Positions 6,057-21,148 are shown, numbered from the stretch's first letter. The stretch is DNA of 64,000 nt from an uncultured Candidatus Saccharimonas sp. (GCA_964511655.1 CAZEGB010000001.1:7087-71086); one strand, 5' to 3'. Notes: generated by a model from the letters alone, not told the origin. Numbers and translations: made by a program.

Positions 6057-6263
6057 ATGGCGAAAAAGAACACGAAGCGTAAATTAGTCGGCCTAGTCAG
6101 CAAACTTAGCGGTCACCGCACTTATTACACGACCAAAAATACTCAAAACACCACTGATAAGATCGTTCTAAAAAAGTATGATCCGATTGCTCGAAAGCAC
6201 GCAACATATACCGAGACAAAAAAGAATCTCGGTCGAAACGAAATTAAACCTCGAAAAAGTTAA
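6057..6263 (+). CDS. rpmG: 50S ribosomal protein L33 (non-zinc form, short C-terminal extension)
   Basis: MAKK...YYTTKN..NT.DKI.LKKYDP..RKH..Y.E.K matches the L33 core. SD AAAGGAA lies upstream. Confidence 0.8.
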   Translation: MAKKNTKRKLVGLVSKLSGHRTYYTTKNTQNTTDKIVLKKYDPIARKHATYTETKKNLGRNEIKPRKS

Positions 6264-6266
6264 TAA

Positions 6267-6977
6267 TTATTGTATTTTCTCGGCTTGACTGTCAATTTGA
6301 CCAGCCAGCCATAAGCCGCTTTCCAGTATAGACTGTAAGAGGCTATTTGAGACGTTTTTATCTGTAGAGTATACATATAGCACTTTGTCGTGAATCTCGG
6401 CTGAAAACGGCCAGAAATGAGCCCCTAGCACCTTTGCGATGCCTGAGGTTATCAATTGTTCAACTTGGATAGACTCGGAAGGCTTTGCGAACAGTGTAAA
6501 TCGGCTAGTAAATTCATCTCCGTAAGATTCGAGAGTACCTATTTCAATAGGCTTCATCATGGGGAAGGCGGTAAAAAACGGTTTATATGAGTTGACGTCG
6601 TGATTATTAGCATGAATAAAAAAGTGCGGGATATCCTGCTTTATATGCAAATCGAACGCCATTATCAACCAGCGGTACATAATAATATCCTTGTCAGCTT
6701 GTATCACGGCGTCGCAGCGGTCGACTATAGTAACATTATATTCGCCGATTGAACCTACCGCGTAATTATCATCTTGGTGGTATGACGATACTGAAAACCC
6801 TCGGACTATTCGGTGATCATCCCGGTGTTGATTGACCGATCCGAAGTGTACGAATCCGATCTTTTCGGCAAATTTGACGATTGCCCGCTTGCGGTTGTGG
6901 CCGTTCGTGAGATTATGATATATATTATGGGTCGCGTGCTTTACGGCGACTTTGACCGGGCGGCTCATATCAATCAT
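6267..6977 (-). CDS. hypothetical protein, last gene of the alpha-glucan cluster
   Basis: The ORF overlaps or abuts the GH15 stop (ATG at 6977 or 6968). I recognise no motif in it. Confidence 0.55.
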   Translation of the reverse strand: MIDMSRPVKVAVKHATHNIYHNLTNGHNRKRAIVKFAEKIGFVHFGSVNQHRDDHRIVRGFSVSSYHQDDNYAVGSIGEYNVTIVDRCDAVIQADKDIIMYRWLIMAFDLHIKQDIPHFFIHANNHDVNSYKPFFTAFPMMKPIEIGTLESYGDEFTSRFTLFAKPSESIQVEQLITSGIAKVLGAHFWPFSAEIHDKVLYVYSTDKNVSNSLLQSILESGLWLAGQIDSQAEKIQ

Positions 6978-8928
6978 TTTCCTTGGCCAAAAGATCGAGC
7001 AAGGTAGTAACATACTCGGCATGAGACCAAGTCAGCGGAGCGGGTGATACTATCTTGTCAGTGACCGGATCAATTTGTTCGCTCATTACGCCGGTACTTA
7101 ATGCGTGTTTTTTACCCCAATCTAGTATTTCAAGCGCTTTTTCGATTTTTCCGTTTTCAATATAATACTGAGCTAGCCAGAATGACGTGACGAACCAGTA
7201 GTTGCCTTGGACTTCTGGGTTTACGCGCCTATAGTCATCGTCTTCGTAGCGCGGCAAACCAAGTACGCCGTCATTAATGCCAAACATATTTTCGATCGTT
7301 TCAATCGATGCTTTGACCTCCTGGCTGTCGGGCTCAAACAATCCAAAAGTATAGACACCAAATATACTCGCGCAGTCGATTGCGTCGTCCTTGATTACTT
7401 TTCCATCTTTAATACATATACCTCGATAAAAGAACTTTCGGTCTTCGCAATAGAGCTGTTTTTTGGCAGCAGCTTGGATGTCAGTGGCCGCCAGTCGCCA
7501 TTTGACCGCATTTTCAGAATCTTTCGCTGCTGAAGCTAGGTCAGAGGCCGCCAGTAATGCCGCATAAGTTACGGCTGTGGTATAGGTACTTGTAATAAAT
7601 ATTCTTTCCCACAGGTCGTAACTAGCCCGAGGCAAACCTGTTAATTCATCGACGAATTCGACCATGAAGTTGGCCATCGGCACGACCATGTCTTTGTAAA
7701 ATTCATGTAAAAGTTTGCCGTCCGGGTGTGTCTGGTAGAACTGAGCGAACATAAATAAGGGCAGTGCGGTCTCGTCTTCTTGGATAGGCGGAGTAATTAC
7801 GCCGTCATGGACATATGAATGCCAGCTGCTGCCCAGTGCGCCGTCAGCTCGGTACTTATGCATCATATAGCCGTCGGGGTGCATGCCTCTTTTCGTAAAC
7901 TCAAAAAAACGGTAGGCTTCGCTTTTGTAACCCATTCTAATCATTGGCCACAAAGTGAAGGCACCGTCACGAGGCCAGCAATACGAATAAGCATCACGGG
8001 AATAATTAAGCATCGACGTGTCCGTACTGGCGATGATTGCGCCACGTTTATCAATCTGAGACTTAATTACCATCATACTTTGCAAAAAATTAGTACGATG
8101 ATTTGGTGAAACCTTGTCGATAATCGCATAAGTAGGTTCAAGCCATTCGTGCCACCAGTCGGCAGTTCGTTTCATGCAAAACAACGTACCATCGTTTTGA
8201 ACCTGTTTATGAATGCGGATAGCTTCGCGGCTGGACATACCGGCGGCAATCCAATAATGAACGCGTTCGGAACTGTTAGCTTCAATATTCACCTTGAATC
8301 TGATAGTAGAGTCAACACGGCCATGCTCGACGTTGTTTATGGTCAACTCGCCGTCTTCAGCATCGCAATAAGTGCCTTTTTTATTTTCTATACCAAAGAG
8401 CCCGACGGTATGTTGATCGAACGGCATATTATTATATTTACCGGACACCACGAATGCCCTGCGGCCGCGATAATGCAAAAGTGCGTTGCTATCAGGTAAG
8501 TATTGAGCTGTGTCGGTATTGCTGCGTGAATCGCCGATTGCAAAGGCCTGATGCATGAATAAGCGTATTTCGCGAGCTTGGGCCCTCAAATTTACGACAT
8601 GTATATTCCTTATAAAGGCGCTGACATGGGCATCGACGAAATCATCAAACTCCAATATTATGCCTAGGCGCTCGTTTTTTGCCAGCGTATGACCGATTAA
8701 GGCGCCGTGCGGATAACGAAACGTAAAAACCCATTCCTTTGCTGAATTCTGAGGATTATCTATCCAGCTGATCTCACCATCAACCCATACGCCAACTTTG
8801 TGGCGCAAATTCGTTCCCGCGGAGTGGTTTTCGAAGCCAACATATGGATAATAAAAGTCGTGTACTGTTCCGAAATCATTTAACCCGACGTGAAGTTCTC
8901 CGTTGCTGAGAACGATGGGTCTAGCCAT
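6970..8928 (-). CDS. glycoside hydrolase family 15 (glucoamylase/glucodextranase-like)
   Basis: An (alpha/alpha)6-barrel GH15 pattern including YSYCWPRDGAFTLWPM and the EQIDP...SPAPLTWSHAEY C-terminus, with an N-terminal beta-sandwich domain. Confidence 0.8.
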   Translation of the reverse strand: MARPIVLSNGELHVGLNDFGTVHDFYYPYVGFENHSAGTNLRHKVGVWVDGEISWIDNPQNSAKEWVFTFRYPHGALIGHTLAKNERLGIILEFDDFVDAHVSAFIRNIHVVNLRAQAREIRLFMHQAFAIGDSRSNTDTAQYLPDSNALLHYRGRRAFVVSGKYNNMPFDQHTVGLFGIENKKGTYCDAEDGELTINNVEHGRVDSTIRFKVNIEANSSERVHYWIAAGMSSREAIRIHKQVQNDGTLFCMKRTADWWHEWLEPTYAIIDKVSPNHRTNFLQSMMVIKSQIDKRGAIIASTDTSMLNYSRDAYSYCWPRDGAFTLWPMIRMGYKSEAYRFFEFTKRGMHPDGYMMHKYRADGALGSSWHSYVHDGVITPPIQEDETALPLFMFAQFYQTHPDGKLLHEFYKDMVVPMANFMVEFVDELTGLPRASYDLWERIFITSTYTTAVTYAALLAASDLASAAKDSENAVKWRLAATDIQAAAKKQLYCEDRKFFYRGICIKDGKVIKDDAIDCASIFGVYTFGLFEPDSQEVKASIETIENMFGINDGVLGLPRYEDDDYRRVNPEVQGNYWFVTSFWLAQYYIENGKIEKALEILDWGKKHALSTGVMSEQIDPVTDKIVSPAPLTWSHAEYVTTLLDLLAKEND

Positions 8929-10150
8929 TCAGCCCTCCGGCATGATGGTCGAAGTATAATCGCCAGCGCACATCGCGGACGACATTGATGTAATACAAGA
9001 AAGCATCATACGGAGACTCATAGGCACTAAAATATGCATGAACGTCACCGTCGTTGAACCATTTGGTACACATGTAGTAGAAGTGGTCCGAGGTTTGAAG
9101 CTTGCGCCAATCGCTGATTAACTGAAGGTCATTGGTTCGCAAAACGTCGTTTTCAATAGAGTATATGTAATGTAATGCTTCCTGTTGCATACTGTTACCC
9201 AGCCATGCCGTCAAGTCCCTCTCGCTGTCAGCCCATGTGACCGTATTTGGCATGCTGATTTCGCCAACGGGTTCGAACGCATCGATTGCGCCGGACACGG
9301 TGTAAAACGTATTGTCAGGATTACTTAGCCATTTACCGACGAAAGCTTCGTAGAACTCAAAGATGCCGGTGTCTTCCCATTGGTGTTCACCAAAGGTTTC
9401 ATAATCCATGAACAAGTTGACGACGTCTTTATCGTAGGCCGAGGTATTTACCCAATCGTTATAGGTGTCAGCCGAAAGCGGCCATTGCGGCCAGGCCCTG
9501 TCGCCGAAGCGGAAGGCAATATCGTCGCTTAGGCGGTAATTTTTGAGAAGAAGAGTAATATTCTTGGTATCGGTCGGACGGTACAAAAAGTTCGGGCTTC
9601 GCCATTCTAGGATTGGATCCCAACCCTCCGCCAAGATACCCTTAAAACCGTATTCGTCTGCCCATTTGGCCAACGAGTCATTATATGACAGCTCGGTATT
9701 GCGGAATACTTTTGTTTCTACTCCGAACAGGTCACGGATTCTGCTTTGATGAGCTCGAACTTGGTTTTCAAATTCGGTTCGGCTATAAAAGAAGGCAAGC
9801 GAGTGGTAATAAGTTTCAGCTACAATCTCGACACGTCCCGTATTGACCAGACGTTTAAAGCTTTCCAAGACGTCCGGTGCCCACATTTCGGCTTGTTCGA
9901 TGAAGGTGCCGGTTATACTTAGCGAAACCTTGAAATCAGGGTGCCTGTCGATTAGCTTCTCTAATAAAGCATTCATCGGCCTATAGGATTTATCAGCGAC
10001 CTTTTTGAACACCTGTTCGTTATTCGATCGGATGTGATAATTTGGCTCGTTGAAATAATCGTGCCTGGTAGCCGTATCAAAAACACTGTACTTACGCACC
10101 CTATATGGTTGATGTGCATGTAAATATAGAACTATGCCGCGCTTGCTCAT
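8921..10150 (-). CDS. glycoside hydrolase family 57 (alpha-amylase / alpha-glucan-processing enzyme)
   Basis: GH57 region I LHAHQPYR and the acid/base region FMDYETFGEHQW. The likely start is MSKRG at 10150, abutting the upstream stop. Confidence 0.8.
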   Translation of the reverse strand: MSKRGIVLYLHAHQPYRVRKYSVFDTATRHDYFNEPNYHIRSNNEQVFKKVADKSYRPMNALLEKLIDRHPDFKVSLSITGTFIEQAEMWAPDVLESFKRLVNTGRVEIVAETYYHSLAFFYSRTEFENQVRAHQSRIRDLFGVETKVFRNTELSYNDSLAKWADEYGFKGILAEGWDPILEWRSPNFLYRPTDTKNITLLLKNYRLSDDIAFRFGDRAWPQWPLSADTYNDWVNTSAYDKDVVNLFMDYETFGEHQWEDTGIFEFYEAFVGKWLSNPDNTFYTVSGAIDAFEPVGEISMPNTVTWADSERDLTAWLGNSMQQEALHYIYSIENDVLRTNDLQLISDWRKLQTSDHFYYMCTKWFNDGDVHAYFSAYESPYDAFLYYINVVRDVRWRLYFDHHAGGLNG

Positions 10151-11370
10151 ACTGTAACTCCTCTTCTCATAGTCCCGTAGATATGCAAAAACTTTCTTGC
10201 GACATCGTGCCATGAAACCTTGCTGTATTCATTTTTAACGTTTTCCTTCAACGAATTCCTTAATGCGCCCGAAGTAGCAATACCGATCATCTGGTCGGCT
10301 AGGCGGTCAACATCCCAAAAATCATAACGAAATATACTATGTAGTACTTCGCCGACGCCAGATTGACGGGTAACAATTAGGGCATTGTCATGATGAGCGG
10401 CTTCAAGAGCAGTCAGCCCGAAAGGCTCGCTAACCGAACTCATAACGAATACGTCGCCGACGCTATAGGCATCGCGCCATTGCTTGCCCCTAACGAAGCC
10501 GGTAAAAAATACTTTGTCAGAAATACCCAAATTAGAAGCCAGTTCAATAAGCTCATTACGTTGTTCACCGTCACCAGCCAACAAAAAGACAAGTTTATCG
10601 TATTTTTCGCTTGCTCTGGCGGCAGCTCTAATAAAATGAGCCAAACCCTTTTGGATGGTAAAACGTGTAATGTTCACAACAATAGTATAACCCTCATGCT
10701 TTAATGATTCAAGGTATCTATAGGTACTAAGATCATATTGGTAGCCGTTGTTAAAACTGTCGACGTCAATCGCATTGTGCACGACCTCGACTTTGTCAGC
10801 CGGTATACCGTATCTGTGAACAATAATGTTTTTAGTGATGTTACTGACGGCAATAATTCGATCAGCCATCATCAGGCCTTGGTATTCAATTTCGTGAACC
10901 AGAGGGTTGCCCGAACTACTGCCCGAACGGTCGAATTCGGTCGCATGGACATGGACGATCAGCGGTGTGCCGCAAATTTCCTTGGCACGCATACCAGCTT
11001 CCATTGTCAGCCAATCATGAGCGTGAACGACGTCAAATTCTTTACTCTTGACCAATTGCTCGACAAACTGAACGTAGCGTTTTTGTACGCCGCGCATATC
11101 CTTGAGGTCGTTAATATCTGCCTTGGAAAGCGGTTTGTTCAAAACCTTCGAACTGTCATAGCTGCCAAGACCATATCTTTCAAGCGGCGTCAGAGGTGTA
11201 GCGGCGTGAATCGTCATGAAATTAATACCGGTGTGCTCGGCGGTATAGGGAAGTACGAAATCAATCGAGGCGCCTTGGATAGCCAAAGCTTTGGACATGT
11301 GATAGCAAGCTACACCCAGCCCACCACTGTTGTGAGGAGGAAGTTCCCACCCTAGCATTAGTATTTTCAT
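10147..11370 (-). CDS. GT-B fold glycosyltransferase, glycogen/alpha-glucan synthase-like (GT4/GT5)
   Basis: N-terminus MKILMLGWELPPHNSGGLGVA and C-terminal E-x7-E region SVSEPFGLTALEAAHH. Confidence 0.75.
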   Translation of the reverse strand: MKILMLGWELPPHNSGGLGVACYHMSKALAIQGASIDFVLPYTAEHTGINFMTIHAATPLTPLERYGLGSYDSSKVLNKPLSKADINDLKDMRGVQKRYVQFVEQLVKSKEFDVVHAHDWLTMEAGMRAKEICGTPLIVHVHATEFDRSGSSSGNPLVHEIEYQGLMMADRIIAVSNITKNIIVHRYGIPADKVEVVHNAIDVDSFNNGYQYDLSTYRYLESLKHEGYTIVVNITRFTIQKGLAHFIRAAARASEKYDKLVFLLAGDGEQRNELIELASNLGISDKVFFTGFVRGKQWRDAYSVGDVFVMSSVSEPFGLTALEAAHHDNALIVTRQSGVGEVLHSIFRYDFWDVDRLADQMIGIATSGALRNSLKENVKNEYSKVSWHDVARKFLHIYGTMRRGVTV

Positions 11371-11527
11371 TTTTTCGAGTTAACGAGTAGCCATGTTCGG
11401 CTATTCGGCCTCCTTGGTTGTTTTTATATATTCGTTCTGGGACAATTATATGACGACGCTAATGCTTTTGCAACTCTTTAATTAGTCAAGAATATCTGTT
11501 ACAATATCCCCGTCGCGATATTTACAT

Positions 11528-11602
11528 AGGGGCATAGTACAACGGTTAGTATAAAGGTCTCCAAAACCTTAGATCGTGGTTCGATTCCACGTGCCCCTGC
11601 CA
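11528..11602 (+). tRNA. tRNA-Trp (CCA), CCA end encoded
   Basis: Acceptor AGGGGCA/TGCCCCT, anticodon stem AAGGT/ACCTT, loop CTCCAAA, T-arm CGTGG-TTCGATT-CCACG. Confidence 0.9.
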
Positions 11603-11621
11603 AACAGGACAAAATGAAAAT

Positions 11622-11677
11622 AACAGATTAGAATCGGTTCGGCTTTTCCGAATACAATCTAATCTGTTTTGTTTTTG
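11622..11677 (+). terminator. hairpin plus T-run downstream of tRNA-Trp
   Basis: AACAGATTAGA...TCTAATCTGTT (11-bp arms) followed by TTGTTTTT. Confidence 0.6.
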
Positions 11678-11700
11678 TCAAATCCGCCTCTGTTAAAAAA

Positions 11701-11718
11701 GTTCGATTCCACGTGCCC
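11701..11718 (+). repeat. direct partial copy of the tRNA-Trp T-arm/acceptor (att-like remnant b)
   Basis: GTTCGATTCCACGTGCCC is identical to tRNA positions 11579-11596. Confidence 0.7.
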
Positions 11719-11770
11719 GTATTGCGTATTATATTAGAATGTTGAATACCATTATCAATTAGCCAAATAG

Positions 11771-14380
11771 TTATTGGATAGATTTCTTCGTTTTTTCCAC
11801 CTTGATTTTACGCCTGTGTCCTTTATTGAAAAAACGACGACCAACCCATTTATGTATCTCGACAACTGTTATTGGAACTATAATCGCGATGATAGTGGCG
11901 ATAGTTGCATCAACAGGTGATATTGGCGTTAGATGTAGTAAATGACTTGCGACACCTGACATTGCAACCCATTGCATACAGACCGCAATAATCAATCCAA
12001 AATAAAATGTCGGGCTAAATCGTCGAATCCGTTCCCAAAGTGATTCGTAATCGCTTCTATAACATAGAGCACTAGCCCATTGCATAACAACCATAATATG
12101 AAAGGCAACTGTCCGCGCGTAATCAATACCATTTCTTCCAATTTCGTTGATATATACCATTAACACTAGTACCGCCATAGTAAACGCTATTAGCACAATA
12201 CGAGATATCATAAACCGACTAAAGAGTGGGGCTGTTGGTGATTGTGGTGGCCATTTCATATTTCTTTTTTCTCCAGGTTCAAGACCAAGAGGAATTACCA
12301 TGCATGTGTCTGTAACAAGATTAACCCACAGTATTTGTACTGGCAGTAAAGGTACTGGGATACCAATAACTAGCGAGCCTAACGCTACCATAACTTCACC
12401 AGCATTGGTGGATAAAAGATATGCAACCATTCTTTTAATATTTGCATATATGGTACGGCCCTCGTGAACGGCACTAATAATTGATTTGAAATTATTATCA
12501 AGCAATATAATATTGCCGGCATCTTTTGCTATACTTGCACCGCTTCCCATCGCAACACCAACATGCGCACTTGAGAGCGCCGGAACGTCATTCACGCCAT
12601 CACCAGTCATTGCAACAATTTGACTATTTTTTAATACAGTTAATATTCTGTATTTATTTTCTGGGGTTACACGAGCAAATACGCGAACGTTATTGGCTAC
12701 AGACTCAAGCTCTTTATCGCTCATGCTATTCATTTTCCTACTATCAAACACTTGATCCTGATATTCGATAATCCCTAATTTTTTGCCGATATGAAATGCC
12801 GTTTCAAAATGGTCACCTGTAATCATACAAACTTTTATACCTGCCTGCTGGGCGGCAATAATCGCGCTTTTTGCTTCGGTTCGCAAAATATCTGCAATTG
12901 CAACAAATCCATCAAATATAAATTTTTTATGCGCCGATAAATCATTAAATGATAAGATTTCTTCGACATCTTCTTGATGCGCCAAGGCAATAACTCTAAA
13001 CCCGTTGCCAGCCATAGTATAGAGCATGCTCATAGCTTTTTCGTGCTGATCATGGGATAACCCGGATCTTGACAGGATAGTCTCTGGAGCACCCTTAACC
13101 CAAAGTATATTTTTACCATCTTCCTTAATGATATTTCCACTCATAGAATATTTTTGATCAAAAGGTAGTTTTAAAATTAAAACACCAGTTTTGCTGATTT
13201 CTTTTGATAAATGTACATAATCATTTAATGCAACGTCTAGGGGATCGTATGTTTTAGATTCAGAATGGTTCACGGATCTTTTGATGGCAAAAAGAATCTT
13301 TTGTATATCGCCACTCAGATTCCATACTTGCTGAACGGTTAGTTTATTTTCCGTAAGCGTACCGGTTTTGTCGGTTGCAATTACCGTCAAGCAACCGATA
13401 GTCTCTATAGCATTGACAGCTTTAACAAGTGCATTTTTCTTTGCCATTCGTCTCATTCCGATCACAAGAACAACAGTAATAGCAACAGCTAGGCTTTCGG
13501 GTACCGCACTGACGGATAGTGCTAGCACATACCGAATTCCTTCTGCAAAATCCATACCACGATACAACCCAAGCAACAAAGCGACAATTGCAATGACAGA
13601 GATCGCACGAATAATCATTGTGATTAACTTATCGATTTTGGTTTGAACCGGACTTTGCTGGGCTGGATTTACTGAAAGCGCGGCAATTTTTCCAAACTCA
13701 GTGCTATTTCCAGTTGAGACCACTAAAGCCCTTGCGTTACCGCCAACCACAAAAGAACCCTGAAAAATCATGTTCGATTGTTCATACAACTCTTTAACTT
13801 CGGAAAGTTCGCCAGTCTGTTTTTCAACTGGAAGCGATTCGCCTGTTAATTGAGACTCATCAACACGAAATGAATTCACGTTTAGCAAGCGTGCGTCTGC
13901 TGGTATTTTTTCGCCCTCATCTAGAATGATGATATCTCCCGGCACAAGTTGCGAAGCCTCAATTTTAACAACCAGCTTTTCCCTAAGGACATCAACCATT
14001 AATCTGTCGTGCTTTTGTAAAGACCTTAGAATACGTTCAGTTGAAAATCTCTGCACATAATAAATAGTGGCATTTGCAAACATAATGGCAAAAATAATTA
14101 CAGCATCCGTAACTGCGTTGTGCCATATACTGATAGCGGCAGCGAAAAAAAGCACTAGCATGAATATATTCATAAATGGTTCTATGATTTTTCGCCAAAA
14201 AGGCTCACCGTGAACAGTTACGACATTTTCACCATATTGAGCTAACCGTTCTAATGCTTCTGACTTCGAAAGTCCCGTTTCACTTGATAATAAATCAGAT
14301 AGGTTTTCTTGTATATTTTTTGAATAAAAAGACATTAGCATAATTATACCAAATTCGTAGGTTATTCTTTTTATATACAT
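11771..14380 (-). CDS. P-type cation-transporting ATPase (type II-like); start uncertain (ATG 14380, 14341 or 14335)
   Basis: TGES, PESL (PEGL equivalent), DKTGTLT, MITGDH, TGDGVNDVPAL, and about 10 TM segments. Confidence 0.85.
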   Translation of the reverse strand: MYIKRITYEFGIIMLMSFYSKNIQENLSDLLSSETGLSKSEALERLAQYGENVVTVHGEPFWRKIIEPFMNIFMLVLFFAAAISIWHNAVTDAVIIFAIMFANATIYYVQRFSTERILRSLQKHDRLMVDVLREKLVVKIEASQLVPGDIIILDEGEKIPADARLLNVNSFRVDESQLTGESLPVEKQTGELSEVKELYEQSNMIFQGSFVVGGNARALVVSTGNSTEFGKIAALSVNPAQQSPVQTKIDKLITMIIRAISVIAIVALLLGLYRGMDFAEGIRYVLALSVSAVPESLAVAITVVLVIGMRRMAKKNALVKAVNAIETIGCLTVIATDKTGTLTENKLTVQQVWNLSGDIQKILFAIKRSVNHSESKTYDPLDVALNDYVHLSKEISKTGVLILKLPFDQKYSMSGNIIKEDGKNILWVKGAPETILSRSGLSHDQHEKAMSMLYTMAGNGFRVIALAHQEDVEEILSFNDLSAHKKFIFDGFVAIADILRTEAKSAIIAAQQAGIKVCMITGDHFETAFHIGKKLGIIEYQDQVFDSRKMNSMSDKELESVANNVRVFARVTPENKYRILTVLKNSQIVAMTGDGVNDVPALSSAHVGVAMGSGASIAKDAGNIILLDNNFKSIISAVHEGRTIYANIKRMVAYLLSTNAGEVMVALGSLVIGIPVPLLPVQILWVNLVTDTCMVIPLGLEPGEKRNMKWPPQSPTAPLFSRFMISRIVLIAFTMAVLVLMVYINEIGRNGIDYARTVAFHIMVVMQWASALCYRSDYESLWERIRRFSPTFYFGLIIAVCMQWVAMSGVASHLLHLTPISPVDATIATIIAIIVPITVVEIHKWVGRRFFNKGHRRKIKVEKTKKSIQ

Positions 14381-14455
14381 TAACTAACAAGAAACAGCAC
14401 AATATAACTAGAGGCGGCATCAGTCTATACCAAATAATCAAGCCTTTATATATTA

Positions 14456-14902
14456 TCACTCTGCCCATTTTTTAAAGTTAATGAAGCGTAACATCTCTTC
14501 AGTTAAGTACTCAGACTGTACGCGGCGCATCAACTCACAACTATCGTTCTGAGATAAGATATTCAGGCTACCTTCCCAAAAAATATAGCTATCTATTATT
14601 GCTAATTTTCGATGATGCCCAACTGTCATAAATACTTCTATGCCAATATTCTGCATCTCTCCAATAGCCAACAACACCTGATCGCAAAGTGTGGGATTGT
14701 GTTCATCAAGCGGTTTTGTATTCACGACAACTCTTACGTTGCGTAATCGTAACTCACCGAAAATTGGTAGCAGCTGGTACATACGCTTTTTAGTAATAAA
14801 TGGACTTTCGATAATTACAGTGTTGCGTGCGTTATTTAAGTCTTTAATAAATGCCTTATAAAATGTATCTTGGTTGAATAGGGAAGAGTTATTCATTTTC
14901 AC
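14456..14902 (-). CDS. single-HKD phospholipase D superfamily protein (Nuc-like nuclease candidate)
   Basis: One HxK(x)4D motif, HHRKLAIID, followed by EGSLN. At 148 aa its size fits the homodimeric Nuc/BfiI-type fold. Confidence 0.7.
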   Translation of the reverse strand: MKMNNSSLFNQDTFYKAFIKDLNNARNTVIIESPFITKKRMYQLLPIFGELRLRNVRVVVNTKPLDEHNPTLCDQVLLAIGEMQNIGIEVFMTVGHHRKLAIIDSYIFWEGSLNILSQNDSCELMRRVQSEYLTEEMLRFINFKKWAE

Positions 14903-14953
14903 TCTCCTCAGAAAAACTAGTTATGCCACAAAAGATTCGGTAATCGTCCTGGA

Positions 14954-14965
14954 GCCCCTGCCAAA
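14954..14965 (+). repeat. tRNA-Trp 3'-end remnant c (GCCCCTGCCAAA)
   Basis: A 12-nt match to tRNA-Trp 11593-11604, followed by hairpin AAATAAGAAACTGA...TCAGTTTCTTATTT (14963-15001). Confidence 0.5.
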
Positions 14966-15046
14966 ATAAGAAACTGAGCCTCGTGTTCAGTTTCTTATTT
15001 TGTTGGTTCCCGCGGATCGAACCACGATCGACGAGCGAAGCGAGTC

Positions 15047-15153
15047 AGATCGTGGTTCGGCGTAGCGAATGAAGCGAAAGAAAGCACCGTAGGTATTTTC
15101 TTTCGCGAATGAGCGGAGAAGGCTTTAGCCGCTTTCCACGTGCCCCTGCCAAA
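15047..15153 (+). repeat. tRNA-Trp 3' fragment d, split in its T-loop by a 74-nt insert
   Basis: AGATCGTGGTTCG (15047-15059) and TTCCACGTGCCCCTGCCAAA (15134-15153) are contiguous in the intact tRNA apart from a single A (tRNA position 11584) lying between them. Here that A is replaced by a 74-nt insert. Confidence 0.75.
15055..15133 (+). repeat. ~80-nt structured repeat, copy A
   Basis: Stem GCGAAAGAAA (15074-15083) / TTTCTTTCGC (15097-15106) and a second hairpin GGC-TTTA-GCC. Aligns with 4929-5008 on the opposite strand. Confidence 0.7.
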
Positions 15154-15211
15154 ATGGTTATGCTAATAATAGACTTCACAATGAAGTCTATTATATTGTT
15201 ATACTGTAGGT

Positions 15212-15901
15212 ATGATAACTACTTTATTTACACTTATATCGCTTGACGGTAAGATATCGACTGGAGCTAGCGACGACCGCGATTTCGACAAAGACTTGCC
15301 AAATATCACAGGAGTTTCTGAAGGTCTACACCAATACTATGAATTAGAAGAAAAAACAGACTTATTTTCTTTCAATACAGGCAAGGTAATGGCTAAAGTC
15401 GGCTGGAATGACGTTAGAGAAAATATTTCAAAAATCCCTGTAACTTTTATAATTATAGATAACCAGCCGCATTTAACTAAATTTGGAGTTGAGAATCTAT
15501 TAAAGCGATGTAAAGAGCTAATAATAGTTACAACATATACATCACACCCCGCATTGAATATTGAGGACCAAAATATTGAAGTAATTCAATTTCAGGATAA
15601 GATTGATTTTGTTGAGTTATTTAACCAATTAGACAGTCGCGGCATCGAATGCATGACGATACAATCTGGCGGAGATTTGAACGCCACACTTCTACAGACT
15701 GGCCTTATTAATGAAATTTCTATTGTGATTGCACCTGTATTAATCGGTGGCAAAGATACACCAAGCTTGATTGGCGGACAATCAATACTTGAATTAGAGA
15801 ACCTAAAGAATATAAAAACACTAGAATTGTTAGATGTAGTGGAGCTTGACAACAATTATCTCCAATTACGCTATAAAGTTCTCAACCAAATTATATTGTA
15901 A
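15212..15901 (+). CDS. RibD C-terminal domain / dihydrofolate-reductase-like reductase family protein
   Basis: N-terminal LISLDGKISTG pattern and C-terminal QSGGDLNATLLQTGLINEISIVIAPVLIGG, typical of RibD_C. Confidence 0.65.
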   Translation: MITTLFTLISLDGKISTGASDDRDFDKDLPNITGVSEGLHQYYELEEKTDLFSFNTGKVMAKVGWNDVRENISKIPVTFIIIDNQPHLTKFGVENLLKRCKELIIVTTYTSHPALNIEDQNIEVIQFQDKIDFVELFNQLDSRGIECMTIQSGGDLNATLLQTGLINEISIVIAPVLIGGKDTPSLIGGQSILELENLKNIKTLELLDVVELDNNYLQLRYKVLNQIIL

Positions 15902-15992
15902 AAACCCTAGTATATTTGTGTCGTTGATATCAACATAATTAAAACAGTGTAACATATGCGCTGCCAAACTGATTATGTCTAAATAGACTTCA

Positions 15993-16544
15993 ATGTCAAG
16001 AGGTGAATCTTTTGTTATACTTAACAATATGAAACAATTGCTCATAATACACGAATCAGATATCTTTCCAGAAAGAGAAAACATTAGTTCTACAGATTTT
16101 ACGGAACGAAGTGCCGCACGGGCTGTAGTTTTAAATGACAAAAATCAAATAGCACTTCTGAAAGCCAACACATACAACTGTTATAAATTGCCTGGTGGTG
16201 GTGTCGAAACTGGAGAAGACATGAAGATTGCCTTGAAAAGAGAGTTACTAGAAGAAATTGGCTGTGCAGCTAATGTAATAGCTGAAATCGGAGAGATTAT
16301 TGAATATCGAGACAAACGGAAATTAAAACAGACTTCGCATTGTTATTTGGCCAAACAGGTTAGCGAGCAACAAATACCATCATTCACACAAAGTGAAATA
16401 GATGGAGGTTTCGAAGTTGTTTGGGCTGACAATATAGATGCAGCGATCGGATTACTTAAACAATATCGCCTACAAAATTATGATGACCTATTTATTCAAC
16501 GCAGAGACACTACTTTTCTTCAAACAGCAAAAGAATTACTTTAA
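15993..16544 (+). CDS. NUDIX hydrolase (alternative start ATG 16029)
   Basis: Nudix box GGGVETGEDMKIALKRELLEEIGC (GX5EX7REUXEEXGU). Confidence 0.8.
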   Translation: MSRGESFVILNNMKQLLIIHESDIFPERENISSTDFTERSAARAVVLNDKNQIALLKANTYNCYKLPGGGVETGEDMKIALKRELLEEIGCAANVIAEIGEIIEYRDKRKLKQTSHCYLAKQVSEQQIPSFTQSEIDGGFEVVWADNIDAAIGLLKQYRLQNYDDLFIQRRDTTFLQTAKELL

Positions 16545-16576
16545 GTTTACGATAGTTATATAATCGAAGCGTCGGA

Positions 16577-16630
16577 CATGTGCCCCTAGCTGCGACCATG
16601 GTTCGGCTCAGTAGCTGAAGCGAAAAAGTG
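16577..16630 (+). repeat. degenerate tRNA-Trp 3' remnant e plus truncated third copy of the structured repeat
   Basis: ACATGTGCCCCTAGC resembles CCACGTGCCCCTGCC. CATGGTTCGGCTCAGTAGCTGAAGCGAAAAAGTG resembles the first ~35 nt of copy A. Confidence 0.45.
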
Positions 16631-16672
16631 TTCCTGGATATTAATTATTTCTTACTTTATACTATGCATTAA

Positions 16673-17032
16673 ATGAATAATGATCTTCGTAAAGCAATTC
16701 GTATTTCTCTGATAATTTCAACTGCACTAATAATATTTTACCTGTTTTTCAAAATTAGCATTCTGATGGAAAACAACATTGATGTTTCTTCTTGGGTTTC
16801 TTTGACCGGCACCGTAAATGAAACATATTTTTTGAATAATAGTGGCGAGCTGGTGATGAATGAAGCAGGTGGTGTTAATAACATTTCCTTGATACATACT
16901 ATACAATTTTTTGCTGATATATTTTTGATATTCACGATCTATATCTATGGATTCTTGAGAGCAAAGCGAATACCAACCAAAATCTCTATACAAGCAAACA
17001 ATGAGGGGTTGATAAATGGCGCAAACAAATAA
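16673..17032 (+). CDS. small membrane protein (2 predicted TM)
   Basis: Hydrophobic segments ISLIISTALIIFYLFF and FFADIFLIFTIYIYGFL. Overlaps the next ORF by 17 nt. Confidence 0.5.
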   Translation: MNNDLRKAIRISLIISTALIIFYLFFKISILMENNIDVSSWVSLTGTVNETYFLNNSGELVMNEAGGVNNISLIHTIQFFADIFLIFTIYIYGFLRAKRIPTKISIQANNEGLINGANK

Positions 17033-17375
17033 AGCAAAAAATATCATTGTATTTACGCCCCTAACGTTTGCTCTGATTATGATAACCAGCATGTTTTCAT
17101 ACCCGGTCTCAGCGATTACGGCTGACGATTTAAACAAAACAGTGTCAGACGAGGTGGCATATAACAACATGGAATTTACTTTAATGATTAACCTTACGCT
17201 TTATGCCGTAGGGTTCGTGGCCTGTATCATGCTTGCATACGGATGTATATCCTTCGTCAAATCACGAGACAGAGGGTTTTTTAGTCCATTAGCCAGAGCT
17301 ATTTACTATGCAATTTTTAGTATATTTTTAGTACTTATATCGTACGCAATTAATAATTTTGTGGTGGCTGGATAG
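17016..17375 (+). CDS. small secreted/membrane protein (signal peptide plus 2 TM; the architecture is reminiscent of TrbC/VirB2-type pilins, but this is unproven)
   Basis: Signal-like N-terminus ending PVSA|IT, then two long hydrophobic helices. Confidence 0.5.
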   Translation: MAQTNKAKNIIVFTPLTFALIMITSMFSYPVSAITADDLNKTVSDEVAYNNMEFTLMINLTLYAVGFVACIMLAYGCISFVKSRDRGFFSPLARAIYYAIFSIFLVLISYAINNFVVAG

Positions 17376-17378
17376 TAT

Positions 17379-17663
17379 ATGAAAATACGTCTAGATAATA
17401 TTCAAACAGACGACTCCGAAATTCGGATTGCTTATTATAAGCGTAAGACAAAAATTTTTAGTATCTTGTCATTGCTATCATTTGGGTTTTATAACTTATA
17501 CGCCAGTGTAAAAAATACAGGTACCCTTGATAGCATGGGTGCCGCTTTTAAAGCCGCATTCGGTTTGATAGTATTTATTATATTTTTCTCATTATTTTCT
17601 GTACATTTTATTATTTTTATATTGCTGTCGGCTAAGAATAAGCGCCAAAATCGCATAGAATAG
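17379..17663 (+). CDS. small membrane protein (2 TM)
   Basis: Starts 4 nt after the previous stop. Contains two hydrophobic segments. Confidence 0.5.
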   Translation: MKIRLDNIQTDDSEIRIAYYKRKTKIFSILSLLSFGFYNLYASVKNTGTLDSMGAAFKAAFGLIVFIIFFSLFSVHFIIFILLSAKNKRQNRIE

Positions 17664-17713
17664 CATCGATATTGATTTACATTAGCATTATTAAATGCTT
17701 AGATTAATATAAC

Positions 17714-18259
17714 ATGGCAAAAAGAACGAATAAATTAGCCAGAGGTATTCCCAATATTCATAAGCATATCTCAGCGATTACGATTATTTTCGTAATTATT
17801 ACGGTTACAATATGCGCGCATATAGTGCCAAGAGTGGTCGAAAATATCCGAAAAGACAGGGCGGTTTCGATATTAAACAGCCTAAAACTTGACAGCCAGA
17901 ATTATATACAGGGGCTCAGTAATATCGATGGCGAAAACAATCGCATATACCGTTCGAATGACGATCCGTTCCTTCGGACATACGTCAGAGGCGCTAATGT
18001 CGACGAAACTGTCACCGAACTAAAAAATGCAATATCAAAAACAGATTTCAAAATATATAAAACATACGATGATAGTTCTTTCGTCTTTAAATCACCCAAT
18101 AATGAATTGCTTCAAATATCCGTATCAAGTATGGCTTACCAGGAGGACTTTTATAATAAATTTTACATGGGGCTATCTACGGACGATATCACGACCAGCA
18201 CGAACGCCGGCCCCTCTAACGTCTCGATTCATATATACCTTGGCGGCGACAGCGATTAA
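17714..18259 (+). CDS. membrane-anchored extracytoplasmic protein, unknown function
   Basis: Basic N-terminus, one TM (ISAITIIFVIITVTICAHIV), then a ~130-aa soluble domain. Confidence 0.5.
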   Translation: MAKRTNKLARGIPNIHKHISAITIIFVIITVTICAHIVPRVVENIRKDRAVSILNSLKLDSQNYIQGLSNIDGENNRIYRSNDDPFLRTYVRGANVDETVTELKNAISKTDFKIYKTYDDSSFVFKSPNNELLQISVSSMAYQEDFYNKFYMGLSTDDITTSTNAGPSNVSIHIYLGGDSD

Positions 18260-18327
18260 TAATGCGTTACGATCAATCGTCTAAACACTGGTCGCGCTAG
18301 TCTTTCTCTTTTTGTTATAGTATATTT

Positions 18328-18480
18328 ATGAGCTTTTCTGAAAATGTATTCGTCATTGCATATAAACTAACGGCTGAAGAAGGCGATATTTTTATAAAAA
18401 CGATTTGGTGGGACGATAACAGGCAAAATTTACAGAGAATGGTAAATATAATCCAGCAAAAGGTAGCTAATTATGAATAA
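18328..18480 (+). CDS. possible 50-aa ORF (MSFSENVFVIAYKLTAEEGDIFIKTIWWDDNRQNLQRMVNIIQQKVANYE) translationally coupled to the racemase-like gene
   Basis: Translated by hand. Its stop TAA (18478-18480) overlaps the ATG at 18473 of the next gene (ATGAATAA). Confidence 0.3.
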   Translation: MSFSENVFVIAYKLTAEEGDIFIKTIWWDDNRQNLQRMVNIIQQKVANYE

Positions 18481-19231
18481 TTCAGTATATCTCATAAGTG
18501 CTGCTGGCGGTAATATAACCGCAATCCAAGTTATCGACAATCCGCAAACAGATGAATGGTACGCAATTAACGGAAAGGACCTAGGTAATAGGTTTGAAAA
18601 GTTCGGCGCTGAACAGTCAGGATTTCTGATTAGAAGCACTAATCATTTCCAGATGGCTGGAGGTGAATTCTGCGGCAATGCAACTAGAGCCGCTGCCGTA
18701 CTATTTTCTAAACTTCGCAATAGCCCGGATGTAAAATATACTGTCTCGGGTTATAGCGGAACTGTTAATTCGCACGTAGATCAAAATGGTCTGCAAAATG
18801 TTTACTCCGTTGAGAGCATATTTTCCGATATGCCAATTGACGCAAAGGAGGTGATAACTATTGGCGAGGAAGCAGTTTTAGTCGACCTAGGCGGAATAGT
18901 CCATATAGTGATTCAGGACGAAATGCCGAAAAATTTCGAAGGCGTTCATCGTCAGATTGTCAATGATTTAAACCTTTCCAAACGTGATGCCGTAGGTGTT
19001 GTTTGGTATACGATGGATCAATCACACGTATTGATTCATCCCGTAGTTTGGGTCAGAAGCATTGACAGCTTTTTCTATGAAACGTCTTGTGGCTCCGGTT
19101 CGATCGCAGTCGCCAGAGTAACTGGGTTAAAAGAAATTCACCAAGTTTCAGGTGAAGCAATACATGTATCCATTAATGATAAATCCGTATCCCTAAAAAG
19201 CAGAATGGAAATAATAAATCATGATATATAA
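18473..19231 (+). CDS. DapF/PhzF-fold PLP-independent racemase/epimerase-like protein
   Basis: Two pseudo-symmetric halves, each with a catalytic-type Cys motif: GEFCGNATRAAA and ETSCGSGSIAVA (compare DapF GNGxRC / CGSG). Confidence 0.6.
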   Translation: MNNSVYLISAAGGNITAIQVIDNPQTDEWYAINGKDLGNRFEKFGAEQSGFLIRSTNHFQMAGGEFCGNATRAAAVLFSKLRNSPDVKYTVSGYSGTVNSHVDQNGLQNVYSVESIFSDMPIDAKEVITIGEEAVLVDLGGIVHIVIQDEMPKNFEGVHRQIVNDLNLSKRDAVGVVWYTMDQSHVLIHPVVWVRSIDSFFYETSCGSGSIAVARVTGLKEIHQVSGEAIHVSINDKSVSLKSRMEIINHDI

Positions 19232-19877
19232 ATCATCAAATAATAATCTCAAAAACAGAACTGTGCTATCTTATGAAGACGTCAAAAAAACTAGAATCGG
19301 CAACAGTGAAGAACCTATGGCGAGCGTCAGAAAGTACGATAATCGAATATGTACGGATAATAATGAATGCGAAACTCTCGTCAGGGATGAAGTTGCTAAA
19401 AAGCTTGCGAGAATCAATGACAAACTAGCAGACGGTATGCGCTTGAAAGTTGTTTGCGGTTTTAGGCATCCCGAAACTCAAAAACAACTGTTCGAGAAAG
19501 AGAAAGCTGAAATAATTAGACAAAATCCCGGTGTTTCAGACGAGAAAGCCAACGAATTAACTCACGTTCTTATTGCGGTTCCTGATGTAGCAGGACATAT
19601 TGTTGGTGGCGCCGTAGATATAACTATCGTGGATAAAAACGGCAATGAATTAGATATGGGCACAGCTATTGCTGACTTTGAAAAAGCCGATAAAATCGCA
19701 ACCTACGCTAAGGGAATAAGCGAAGAGCAACGAAAAAATCGAGATTTACTGCACGATTTGATGATATCAGAGAATTTCGCCCCTTTTTATGGAGAATGGT
19801 GGCACTTTTCATACGGCGATAGGGAGTGGGCTGCCTTTTATGACAAAGGCACCGCTATTTACGGCGAATGTGCCTAA
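19221..19877 (+). CDS. VanX-like zinc D,D-dipeptidase (peptidase M15D)
   Basis: Motifs GFRHPETQ, AGHIVGGAVDI (SxHxxGxAxD type) and GEWWHFSYGD (ExxH). Overlaps the upstream gene by 11 nt. Confidence 0.75.
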   Translation: MIYKSSNNNLKNRTVLSYEDVKKTRIGNSEEPMASVRKYDNRICTDNNECETLVRDEVAKKLARINDKLADGMRLKVVCGFRHPETQKQLFEKEKAEIIRQNPGVSDEKANELTHVLIAVPDVAGHIVGGAVDITIVDKNGNELDMGTAIADFEKADKIATYAKGISEEQRKNRDLLHDLMISENFAPFYGEWWHFSYGDREWAAFYDKGTAIYGECA

Positions 19878-21013
19878 TTCGCAATTATAGCTGATATGGC
19901 TGCGCCGTCCAGGCAAGCATTGGAACCTTGGCTGACGTAATCTTTAGTCATGAATAATTTGACGTTGCCGCCTGACGATTTATCTAGGATTTGCTTAACT
20001 CGTTCTCCATAATGCGGAAACTTGAAGGCGCCGCCATGACCGGCAACGGCGCTATTTTCATCAGTCAGATTGATGTCATATACATTTGCCACGCCTTGGA
20101 TTACGTGTGCGATTACTAATGCGGAATTATCGTATAGATCGGAGGCAAGTTTGTCACCAGCTTTGGCCTTGTTCTCGATTTCTCTGGCGTCGATATCTTC
20201 GCCCATTAACTGTTGCCATTGCGCCTCGATACCTGCTTTGTTTGCACCCAGGCGTTCCATGCATATATATTCAGCGCCATATGCGCCGCATGGTTCTTGT
20301 TGATTATAAGAGTTAAGTTCATGTTCAGCTTCGACATGGCCAGCCTCAGTGGAGTATATAATTCCGTCACGCAATACAGCACAGCCGATACCGCCGCCGT
20401 TAATAAGGAATATAACGTCGGACGCGTTATGCGATCTTTTGGCTTCAATGGCGGCACTAATCAGACCAGCCGGGCCGTCATTTATGCATGAAGTTAAATT
20501 TGGAATTAAATTTGCAAAATCGCCGCCATACTTTTGGTTTAATTGTTCAGAAAAAATCTTGAACTTGGATTTGTCCTGCAATTTAGTGCCCTCTAATGGC
20601 GATCCCCATGATATGCCAACGGGAATACCATTCTCGGCCGCATAGGCGGCAGTCTTTTCAAGGCTTTCTATGTAACCATCGCCGAAATCTCCTTGAACGT
20701 AGTCACTGTATCCGTCGCTCTCGACTAATTTACCGTCGCTAATAACGAATAACTTGGTTACGCCTTTGTCGCCGCCAAAATCAGCGCCGATAACGCGTTT
20801 ACCTTCAAGTTCACGTATTTTGGTTAGCGACTCCGTCGGGTTGAACTTCATGACCTCTTGTGAACGTATCGTTTCCATATTAAATAGCGCGAGCTGTTCT
20901 TCGGATAGGTCAGGAACTTCGCGTTCAGTTATAGATTCGTATATTGGCGGGTTGTTGTCTGGTTCTATCGTATCCATAATCTCATCAGGCTTCTCTACGT
21001 AGTTTTCTAGCAT
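19874..21013 (-). CDS. ROK-family sugar kinase-like protein with a ~70-aa N-terminal extension
   Basis: ATPase-fold GADFGGDKG, LINGGGIGCAVLRDGIIYSTEAGHVE, and a partly degenerate Cys motif PCGAYGAEYICME. Confidence 0.6.
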   Translation of the reverse strand: MLENYVEKPDEIMDTIEPDNNPPIYESITEREVPDLSEEQLALFNMETIRSQEVMKFNPTESLTKIRELEGKRVIGADFGGDKGVTKLFVISDGKLVESDGYSDYVQGDFGDGYIESLEKTAAYAAENGIPVGISWGSPLEGTKLQDKSKFKIFSEQLNQKYGGDFANLIPNLTSCINDGPAGLISAAIEAKRSHNASDVIFLINGGGIGCAVLRDGIIYSTEAGHVEAEHELNSYNQQEPCGAYGAEYICMERLGANKAGIEAQWQQLMGEDIDAREIENKAKAGDKLASDLYDNSALVIAHVIQGVANVYDINLTDENSAVAGHGGAFKFPHYGERVKQILDKSSGGNVKLFMTKDYVSQGSNACLDGAAISAIIAN

Positions 21014-21148
21014 ATCTGTATTTTAAACGTTTAGCTCAAATCAAACAATGTTAGTGCGGAAAAAATTTGGTTTGTTCGACGTTTCAAAATATATTTTATA
21101 CAATAAATATTTACTTAATAATCAGATTTATGCTAATCTGTTTTGAAT

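Follow-up and report, generated by a model that had tools for sequence, protein, structure and literature searches.

Saccharibacteria and other Patescibacteria have tiny genomes, and how they acquire accessory genes for transporters, nucleases, pilins, or defence is poorly understood. A tRNA-Trp locus (11528-16630) of an uncultured Candidatus Saccharimonas sp. puts this question in concrete form. We analyzed it within a stretch of 64,000 nt (hereafter the window, meaning the whole stretch; coordinates count from its first letter). Downstream of the tRNA gene, partial copies of its own 3' portion (remnants b, c, d, and e and an inverted T-arm piece) recur between groups of genes, and the original prediction took them for the traces of repeated site-specific integration into the tRNA 3' end, each event displacing the previous end. 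Which of these copies are displaced tRNA ends, and what are the others? Our analysis points to a tRNA-Trp insertion hot spot that holds a recombinase-less cassette (cassette 1) and, further downstream, later cargo modules (2 and 3) lodged at tRNA-shadow modules of a structured-RNA type. We give this reading as a whole an even chance.

The tRNA 3' end as the anchor of an insertion hot spot

ARAGORN and Rfam agree on an intact tRNA-Trp gene, and the predicted same-strand copies b, c, and d are genuine. The repeated core, GCCCCTGCCAAA, lies at 11593-11604 and comprises 12 nt of the tRNA end including CCA and two flanking A residues. Remnant c (14954-14965) repeats it at 12/12 positions, or at 80% of 20 nt when the preceding 8 nt are included. 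Remnant b (11701-11718) corresponds to tRNA positions 52 to 69 (18/18 identical), and remnant d consists of two exact pieces separated by 74 nt: AGATCGTGGTTCG (15047-15059, tRNA positions 44 to 56) and TTCCACGTGCCCCTGCCAAA (15134-15153, positions 58 to 77). The inverted T-arm piece is equally real, being a perfect 14-nt reverse complement (15016-15029) of 11572-11585. With up to one mismatch, GCCCCTGCCAAA occurs at three sites versus 0.22 expected, a count reached in 0/100 shuffles, and AGATCGTGGTTCG at three sites versus 0.12 expected from shuffles. The partial copies b, c, and d and the inverted piece are all well beyond chance expectation. Remnant e is weak by itself, with just ~8 to 9 contiguous tRNA-like bases (16577-16590), yet it belongs to a truly homologous sequence (16541-16590) that recurs in relatives. 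Over 13493-24896, an independent Logan assembly (L164) shows 98.9% identity to the window and zero indels; therefore, the arrangement from c onward is not an assembly artifact.

For comparison, 80 loci, nearly all from Saccharibacteria metagenome-assembled genomes, were retrieved with the flanking glycosyltransferase (GT) protein, for which an exact-protein look-up matched no record. Besides ARAGORN and Rfam for tRNAs, we used Pfam for genes, nhmmer for repeats and modules, RNAfold for folds, PADLOC for defence systems, and a covariance model for the module insert. The gene order GH57-GT-tRNA-Trp is kept in most of the 80 loci, and ARAGORN called tRNA-Trp in 63 of them. The closest relative (L001; 96% identity in the GT protein, 85% in DNA) aligns over 6335-11602, halting exactly at the tRNA 3' end, and again over 17672-18258. 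Between these two blocks, L001 has 205 bp versus 6,069 bp in the window: a terminator comes with a hairpin whose inverted repeats consist of T-arm sequence and with a spacer whose final 50 nt are homologous to window positions 16541-16590. The window therefore holds 11603-16540 and 16591-17671 as extra DNA, and remnant e is a true module boundary, the left edge of module 3, because the L001 spacer ends in its homolog. Such presence/absence polymorphism at repeat boundaries characterizes tDNA islands and is what the original prediction had proposed to look for in relatives.

After tRNA-Trp, gene content differs in almost every species of the set. Synteny with other species restarts only at 27423-30812, a block located 3 to 8 kb from tRNA-Trp in L024, L039, L050, L053, L066, and L067, which delimits 11603 to ~27400 as a hypervariable zone. 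The proposed compositional comparison also yielded a difference: the GC content is 35 to 41% within 12 to 19 kb versus 42 to 47% in the flanks. Together, these observations support a hot spot in which the tRNA 3' end anchors the insertions and whole modules vary between genomes at the boundaries that had been predicted. As anticipated, no integrase or excisionase came to light. Pfam detected no recombinase in any gene of 11.6 to 27.4 kb, and three phmmer queries of the six-frame window (XerD, lambda Int, and a large serine recombinase) returned no match at an E value of ≤10, these being single-sequence searches that very remote relatives could escape. Of the repeated-integration model, the part that stood is c as a displaced end together with the module boundaries; its account of b, d, and the inverted piece as ends displaced one after another did not. 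Table 1 lists the features of the locus.

Table 1. Features in and around the tRNA-Trp hot spot of the window
Feature	Position	Strand	Evidence or remark
tRNA-shadow module M1(Tyr), second module of the window	4900-5062	-	45 nt behind tRNA-Tyr; A', A, and B copied from tRNA-Tyr
tRNA-Trp(CCA), intact, encoded CCA	11528-11602	+	ARAGORN and Rfam (66.1 bits); attB-like anchor of the hot spot
Cassette 1, left end	11603-11718	+	Terminator-type hairpin (11617-11673), then GTCAAATCC..., then remnant b (11701-11718)
P-type ATPase, cation transporting, 869 aa	11771-14380	-	Pfam E1-E2_ATPase (7e-48), Cation_ATPase_C, Cation_ATPase_N
Single-HKD PLD-family nuclease-like gene, 146 to 148 aa	14456-14902	-	Pfam PLDc_2 (5.9e-9); adjoins the cassette right end
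c-type repeat, cassette 1 right end	14900-14965	+	Putative promoter/5' untranslated region side of the PLD gene; ends in core GCCCCTGCCAAA (remnant c)
Perfect 16-bp hairpin, then TTTTG	14962-15002	+	Colinear with the terminator after tRNA-Trp in L107
tRNA-shadow module M1(Trp): remnant d plus inverted piece	15009-15153	+	Fold and covariance model
M1(Trp) A', inverted T-arm	15009-15030
M1(Trp) L, cap stem-loop extending the hairpin	15031-15046
M1(Trp) A, tRNA positions 44 to 56, ending GGTTCG	15047-15059
M1(Trp) I, conserved 74-nt insert at T-loop position 57/58	15060-15133
M1(Trp) B, tRNA positions 58 to 77 including CCA	15134-15153
Terminator-like hairpin, 13 pairs, directly after B	15166-15194	+	Resembles the terminator after tRNA-Trp in L034 and L073
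Cargo module 2: RibD_C-like reductase (15212-15901) and NUDIX hydrolase (15993-16544)	15212-16544	+	Pfam
Remnant e, two fragments	16541-16630	+	M2 3' end and B, then partial M1
Cargo module 3: three small hydrophobic ORFs (119, 119, and 94 aa)	16673-17663	+	16591-17671 missing in L001
First gene in common with L001	17714-18259	+	181 aa, 81% identical in L001; hypervariable zone runs on to ~27400
Distal edge block of the hot spot	27423-30812		ORF homologous to conserved cluster C6, then AAA_33/zeta-toxin-like kinase, 231-aa protein, ~549-aa protein

(ORF, open reading frame; PLD, phospholipase D.)

Cassette 1 belongs to a recurrent recombinase-less family

The insertion of cassette 1 spans 11605-14965, with the 12-bp repeat delimiting it. 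Comparison with L107, a metagenomic relative with an "empty" site, reveals which of the two copies is the older end: the flank of c (16-bp hairpin, then d) matches the L107 tRNA-Trp flank at 147/205 positions with a score of 202, in contrast to a score of just 76 for the present tRNA-Trp flank against the same sequence. Because of this colinearity, c and its flank represent the original tRNA end and flank, displaced by the insertion as had been predicted for c, and the 16-bp hairpin is probably the original tRNA-Trp terminator.

Remnant b has another origin. The left ~115 nt of the cassette recur after tRNA-Trp in L019 (93% identity, tRNA included), L074, and L043 and also directly after an internal core copy in L035. 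Since the left end recurs in relatives, b is part of it rather than a scar formed in the window genome, and its interpretation as a displaced tRNA end must be abandoned; indeed, the b-like piece of L019 carries a T-stem, CCTAG, unlike that of the L019 tRNA itself. The right end recurs as well. The right ~55 nt of the c-repeat plus core retrieved 13 further copies with nhmmer, in L012, L016, L019 (two), L035 (three), L041 (two), L043 (two), and L074. Degenerate c-repeats mark the distal island ends in L030, L062, L036, L032, and L015, each directly before a terminator and a d-like module. In L035, four cores stand in series and the left end lies directly 3' of an internal core, as accretion predicts. 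Cargo varies among cassettes (ABC transporter, radical SAM, DUF2130, JmjC, and Fic, among others), and no recombinase was found among the cassette genes examined in this family. Module 1 is thus a cassette of a recurrent recombinase-less family, inserted at the last 12 bp of the tRNA.

Mechanistically, cassette 1 would have entered by recombination within the last 11 to 12 bp of the tRNA, GCCCCTGCCAA. Its left end would provide the tRNA with a new terminator, its right end would be a ~55-nt conserved, promoter-bearing repeat ending in the second core copy, and the old tRNA flank (terminator plus module M1) would have been pushed 3.4 kb downstream. Recombinase-less cassettes with conserved ends imply a recombination activity in trans, presumably a recombinase encoded outside cassette 1. 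An opposite-strand gene for a large serine recombinase (domains Resolvase, Recombinase, and Zn_ribbon_recom) ends 11 to 14 nt inside the tRNA-Trp 3' end in L047, L052, L056, and L077 and is followed by conserved small genes; gene clusters associated with these elements also occur in L007, L020, L029, and L038. The four elements at tRNA-Trp carry no c-repeat, and no ends in common with the cassettes were found. They appear to be a different, autonomous family of integrative elements using the same tRNA-Trp.

A tRNA-shadow module behind many tRNA genes

Remnant d and the inverted piece were predicted to be displaced tRNA ends. This does not hold, as the same module lies behind tRNA-Tyr in the window and behind tRNAs of 15 anticodon classes elsewhere. 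Likewise, the 74 nt that split d are not a mere insert or debris; they are the most conserved part of the module, and the insert of M1(Tyr) is ~85% identical to that of M1(Trp). nhmmer located modules ~40 to 60 nt behind tRNA-Trp or tRNA-Tyr in ~20 genome loci; further copies are separated from tRNA-Trp by 0.9 to 7.7 kb of cargo in the window, L030, L062, L036, L032, and L015. There are at least four insert types; L001 and remnant e carry the second. Scanning metagenomes with an insert-derived pattern yielded 67 loci (L097-L163), from which three false hits and identical copies were dropped before genome-locus copies were added. Forty-one modules follow a same-strand tRNA, with the insert starting at a median of 100 nt after the tRNA end; the anticodon classes listed are Gln, four Ser, Tyr, Lys, Trp, Asn, two Arg, Pro, Asp, and Gly. 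Modules occur with or without nearby cargo.

The flanks of the insert follow the neighboring tRNA. B agrees with cognate tRNA positions 60 to 73 at ≥12/14 nt in 17/41 modules versus 9/1502 noncognate pairings, and the 8 nt before TTCG agree with the cognate tRNA in 13/41 versus 16/1502. Because cognate matches exceed noncognate ones, the local tRNA must be the template for A', A, and B, and L and I are shared. We picture the shadow modules as an old, conserved family of ~150 nt that would stand after the terminators of many tRNA genes rather than arise as by-products of insertions, each built from the inverted and direct local T-arm, a ~75-nt two-hairpin insert at position 57/58, and the rest of the tRNA.

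A few copies depart from this plan. In L157 (Ga0172368_10003242, ~430-590), the insert interrupts the T-loop of a tRNA-Ser(UGA)-like sequence of full length, in which the acceptor 5' strand, GGCGTAG, forms only 4/7 pairs and the inverted T-arm hairpin is lacking; this copy is either a pseudogene or an intermediate module form. In L110 (~120-330) and L131 (~380-610), tRNA-Ser(GCT) is followed by two inserts arranged head to head, the first as the reverse complement and the second forward, which together make a long palindrome. These copies suggest that the insert can behave as an insertion 3' of TTCG. Clustering of the genes downstream of 66 metagenomic copies revealed no recurrent enzyme and no recurrent reverse transcriptase, Y1 transposase, or recombinase nearby. 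In the first 5 kb after the metagenomic modules, type IV pilin-like proteins with the N-terminal motif GFTIVELLVVI are the commonest products (10 loci), followed by a ~200-aa membrane protein (6 loci); pilin-like genes are also found in the tRNA-Trp island of L036.

Evidence for a likely structured RNA

RNAfold assigns -60.4 kcal/mol (z = -4.7) to M1(Trp) and -53.8 kcal/mol (z = -4.6) to M1(Tyr). Fold-based counts, used since no-gap scoring of A' against A was too crude, place positions 2 to 11 before the insert in the paired strand of hairpin P1 in 85 to 95% of 59 distinct copies. Practically every one of these 59 copies contains P1. The architecture of P1 is constant (lower stem of 10 to 12 bp, 2- to 3-nt bulge on the 3' side, upper stem of 6 to 8 bp, triloop), and its upper stem varies in sequence independently of the tRNA. 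The central insert hairpin, P3, covaries, with changes on both sides in 11/12 pairs among 16 sequences and in 8/13 pairs among 49. On the tRNA-sense strand, G-U pairs outnumber isolated A-C mismatches by 98:2 in P1 and 77:19 in P3, versus 24:10 and 23:49, respectively, on the opposite strand. A DNA palindrome decaying neutrally would not be expected to acquire such a strand-specific bias, which argues that the fold is selected in a single strand of tRNA polarity. Most simply, this strand would be RNA, and the shadow modules are most likely expressed as structured RNA in the tRNA orientation.

The covariance model of the insert finds just the two known copies in the window, M1(Trp) at 88.4 bits (E = 1e-22) and M1(Tyr) at 86.3 bits, both of which belonged to its seed set. 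A cmscan of 4000-19000 against Rfam 15 at an E value of ≤1 returned four tRNAs and two chance hits, and the module matches no family there. None of the titles and abstracts consulted on tRNA islands in Saccharibacteria and the candidate phyla radiation, T-loop introns, hypervariable regions, or RNAs downstream of tRNA genes describes the cassettes or the module. In the M1(Trp) insert (15060-15133), the GAWUGAA and GAAUGA strands flank the central hairpin; two tandem sheared G-A pairs between them could give a symmetric internal loop that would resemble a protein-binding motif.

Modules 2 and 3 lie between shadow-module fragments

Remnant e is composite. Its first fragment, 16541-16590, is the 3' end plus B of the second module type, M2, and matches a related module in L001, L015, L031, and L080 (in the last three as 16538-16587). 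Its second fragment, 16594-16630, is a copy of A followed by the first ~25 nt of the M1 insert; 16594-16625 is a 75% copy of 15048-15079. Cargo module 2 is missing from L001. Modules 2 and 3 would thus have been inserted or exchanged later than cassette 1, at or inside two preexisting shadow modules, M1 and M2, of which fragments would survive as d and e. Because both modules sit between shadow-module fragments, the latter serve as joints, if only in a passive way. Shadow modules are found at cassette joints again and again, which suggests that they may also be recombination prone.

Several observations weigh against the interpretation developed so far. As to mobility, we infer site-specific recombination in trans, although no recombinase gene turned up in the searches above; the core is a short sequence, and the c-repeat to its left may owe its conservation to promoter function alone. 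In L165, L167, and L169, the core is present but the 8 kb of flank read contain no tRNA, so it may travel with the PLD promoter instead of marking the tRNA-Trp site. The strain behind L164 displays no module polymorphism over 13493-24896 and therefore no sign of recent mobility. As to the shadow module, a recognizable copy stands at only about one-third of the 63 tRNA-Trp loci, B is decayed in more than half of the copies, and the conservation of the insert is partly ascertainment because the metagenomic copies were collected by an insert pattern.

Alternative explanations

A bolder variant of the shadow-module idea goes further on how these modules arise. Remnant d would be a copy of an undescribed class of ~150-nt tRNA-shadow RNAs made by tRNA copying, comprising a capped hairpin top and a ~75-nt GA-rich two-hairpin domain interleaved with inverted and direct copies of the upstream tRNA. 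Module copies would serve as the joints that assemble recombinase-less cassettes behind tRNA genes, as attC does in integrons. Since the flanks are re-templated at every tRNA, such an element would have to arise by copying of the tRNA or its gene, possibly through template switching by a polymerase or reverse transcriptase or through fold-back synthesis coupled to an insertion specific to the T-loop. Retroviral reverse transcriptases, too, end their copying of the primer tRNA at 57/58, the position of the break. We consider this proposal tentative and, taken with its mechanism, more probably wrong than right.

A site-specific system may not be needed at all. Saccharibacteria are naturally competent, and incoming DNA could replace islands through homologous recombination or through illegitimate recombination facilitated by homology, anchored by the tRNA gene on one side and by the c-repeat, shadow modules, or core genes on the other, the tRNA-like repeats being old duplications that by chance make good anchors. 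This would account for the lack of a recombinase gene in 16 kb and for the turnover in nearly every species between tRNA-Trp and the 27.4- to 30.8-kb block. Mosaic joints with truncated modules, such as e (half of M2, then a quarter of M1), are what illegitimate joins give, and the left end of cassette 1, 93% identical to that of L019 despite only 78% identity of the GT proteins, fits lateral exchange of segments. However, homologous replacement alone yields neither an exact 12-bp duplication nor the core-cassette-core arrays of L035, and cassettes of unrelated cargo have both ends in common, the signature of an element and not of random anchors. We regard this alternative as unlikely.

In a view close to the original prediction, remnants d and e and the inverted piece might instead be ordinary att scars of integrase-bearing elements that cross over in the T-loop, the 74-nt insert and its hairpin being a surviving arm, with binding sites for integrase or accessory proteins, of elements whose interior was deleted. 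Williams is said to have described the T-loop crossover in 2002 as a known sublocation for tDNA integrases. A tRNA-type terminator follows B each time, as a displaced host end would have; B and its flank in L030 duplicate the tRNA end and flank; and the direct repeat GCGAATGAAGCG / GCGAATGAGCGG in the insert could be an arm-type site. Yet standard integration leaves the displaced copy contiguous, and here every copy is split at 57/58. The same insert and cap hairpin appear at 15 anticodon classes with A', A, and B re-templated, which an element with a fixed arm cannot achieve. No integrase is recurrent nearby, and covarying stems with a strand-specific G-U bias point to a folded single strand rather than a duplex protein site. 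An 18-mer of the insert gave 16 hits in IMG/VR viral contigs, all by chance within unrelated coding DNA, with no phage copy or attP among them. Ordinary scars thus appear improbable.

The small PLD gene of cassette 1 could itself be the mobility enzyme, a nuclease of the homing or strand-transfer type that cleaves GCCCCTGCCAA in the tRNA-Trp 3' end and drives the copying or joining of its own cassette, with neighboring cargo hitchhiking. HKD enzymes form a covalent phosphohistidine intermediate, and BfiI is able to catalyze DNA transesterification. In 7/7 contexts read (window, L019, L035 twice, L165, L167, and L169), the gene starts ~55 nt from the core copy, within the c-repeat, and reads away from it, like recombinase genes beside att sites. 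L035 contains two consecutive short cassettes (1.2 to 2.7 kb) with a PLD gene at the end of each, and the family is very large (3,623 homologs). Nevertheless, about two-thirds of the c-type cassette ends have no PLD gene, and the protein is just 146 aa long with no recognizable DNA recognition domain. Its best annotated relatives in PADLOC are the PLD domains of MkoC (1.3e-9) and MkoB from the Mokosh defence system, and its neighbors elsewhere are typical of defence loci (restriction-modification, Fic, DUF2130, AAA_13, and RHS genes). The PLD domain alone matches, with no adjacent helicase, so the full Mokosh set of MkoA helicase and PLD partner is absent, and a PDB sequence search with the protein found no match. 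On the PLD strand, the c-repeat offers an extended -10-like TGnTATAAC and a Shine-Dalgarno sequence, suggesting that it is the PLD promoter. We read the PLD gene more simply as frequent defence-type cargo with a conserved promoter, and a role in mobility seems very improbable. In L165, L167, and L169, the PLD gene and the core-bearing promoter repeat edge defence-like clusters (type I/III restriction-modification, AAA_13, DUF2130, Fic, and GIY-YIG genes and one for a giant RHS protein).

Other candidates were discarded for the module: a group I or archaeal-type tRNA intron (insert of ~75 nt, Rfam negative, mismatched acceptor stem in L157, the sole full-length tRNA copy with the insert), a TnpB or IS110 guide RNA (no nuclease or recombinase gene, scaffold too small), a diversity-generating retroelement (differences not adenine specific), a small ORF in the insert (reading frame unconserved), and an integron attC (consensus departed from, no IntI).

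Relation to known systems

The hot spot with its recombinase-less cassette and shadow modules has several known counterparts. It resembles tDNA islands of the Islander, tyrosine-integrase kind in tRNA and tmRNA genes in that an intact, regenerated tRNA marks one boundary and a displaced copy of the tRNA 3' end, in direct orientation, marks the other; the inserted DNA makes the tRNA end and its terminator whole again, the GC content is low, presence is variable, and several elements are stacked at one tRNA. Unlike in those islands, there is no integrase or excisionase gene in the cassettes or in the 16-kb variable zone, the identity block measures only 12 bp, and the cassettes are small (1 to 3.5 kb) with a common promoter-bearing end. 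cis-Mobilizable elements (CIMEs), as in the ICESt1/CIME system of Streptococcus thermophilus, are likewise recombinase-less, bounded by att-like sites, serial at a tRNA-type site, and presumably dependent on functions in trans. Their tandem stacking is reproduced by cassette 1 of the window and by the four cores of L035, but no cognate autonomous element with the same ends was found for these cassettes.

Integron arrays and clusters of attC sites lacking integron integrases (CALINs) offer a second parallel, with short cassettes of unrelated cargo, conserved noncoding hairpin joints, and no recombinase inside the cassettes. Even the foot of P1 (CGAAC...GTTCG) resembles the R''/R' boxes of attC. 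Still, the foot ATCGAAC/GTTCGAT mismatches the RYYYAAC/GTTRRRY consensus; no integrase gene (intI), attI, or cassette promoter (Pc) was found; the cassettes have their own promoters and mixed orientation; and the joints are tRNA derived and specific to the neighboring tRNA.

In turn, small repeat elements (ERIC, Correia/NEMIS, REP/REPIN, and IS200/IS605 palindrome-associated transposable elements [PATEs]) resemble the module as multicopy units of ~75 nt with stable hairpins after terminators, and the head-to-head copies of L110 and L131 fit this pattern. As in IS200/IS605 derivatives, the unit lies directly 3' of a fixed TTCG with no target duplication; the two hairpins of the module are unlike each other. 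What sets the module apart is that each copy sits within an inverted and a direct copy of the adjacent tRNA T-arm and 3' end, and we know of no repeat family that re-templates its flanks to the neighboring gene. No TnpA/RAYT or Y1 transposase was detected in the variable region of the window or near the 66 metagenomic copies. Finally, tRNA-like noncoding RNAs (Y RNA/YrlA, viral tRNA-like structures, and tmRNA) also combine an RNA-like fold with a T-arm and acceptor 3' end with CCA. The module differs in having no acceptor 5' strand or D-arm mimic and no Rfam match, and its T-stem 5' strand pairs with the inverted copy and not with the 3' strand.

The kind of system found here, tDNA islands with accretion of integrase-less elements, is already known. 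Judged with the tools used here, what is new is the Patescibacteria cassette family with its promoter-bearing ends and, most of all, the structured module templated by tRNAs. The tRNA-Trp locus provides a concrete acquisition platform in which a tRNA is followed by serial recombinase-less cassettes with conserved ends. If the module is an RNA, it would constitute a new tRNA-linked noncoding RNA family, of which, to our knowledge, almost none are known in the Saccharibacteria phylum. If it is a mobile insertion, its target-templated flanks would imply an unusual copying mechanism.

Other genes of the window

The predicted functions of the cargo genes (P-type ATPase, PLDc_2, RibD_C, and NUDIX) were borne out by Pfam, and the small ORFs of the stretch reached no family above the Pfam cutoff. 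The cassette 1 ATPase is absent from L001, and the other 79 loci yield one weak 28% match (L075), unplaced relative to tRNA-Trp. NUDIX genes recur in the tRNA-Trp hot spot of L043 and L046. Beyond M1(Tyr), four ORFs (2228-4687) have no homolog in the 80 loci and no Pfam match; this segment represents a second, smaller variable zone behind a tRNA, in which no copies of the tRNA-Tyr end serve as delimiters. Upstream of tRNA-Trp, the GH57-like ORF (8921-10213) and the GT ORF (10147-11370), on the minus strand, overlap by 67 nt as listed, and the upstream start of the GH57 ORF is probably overextended.

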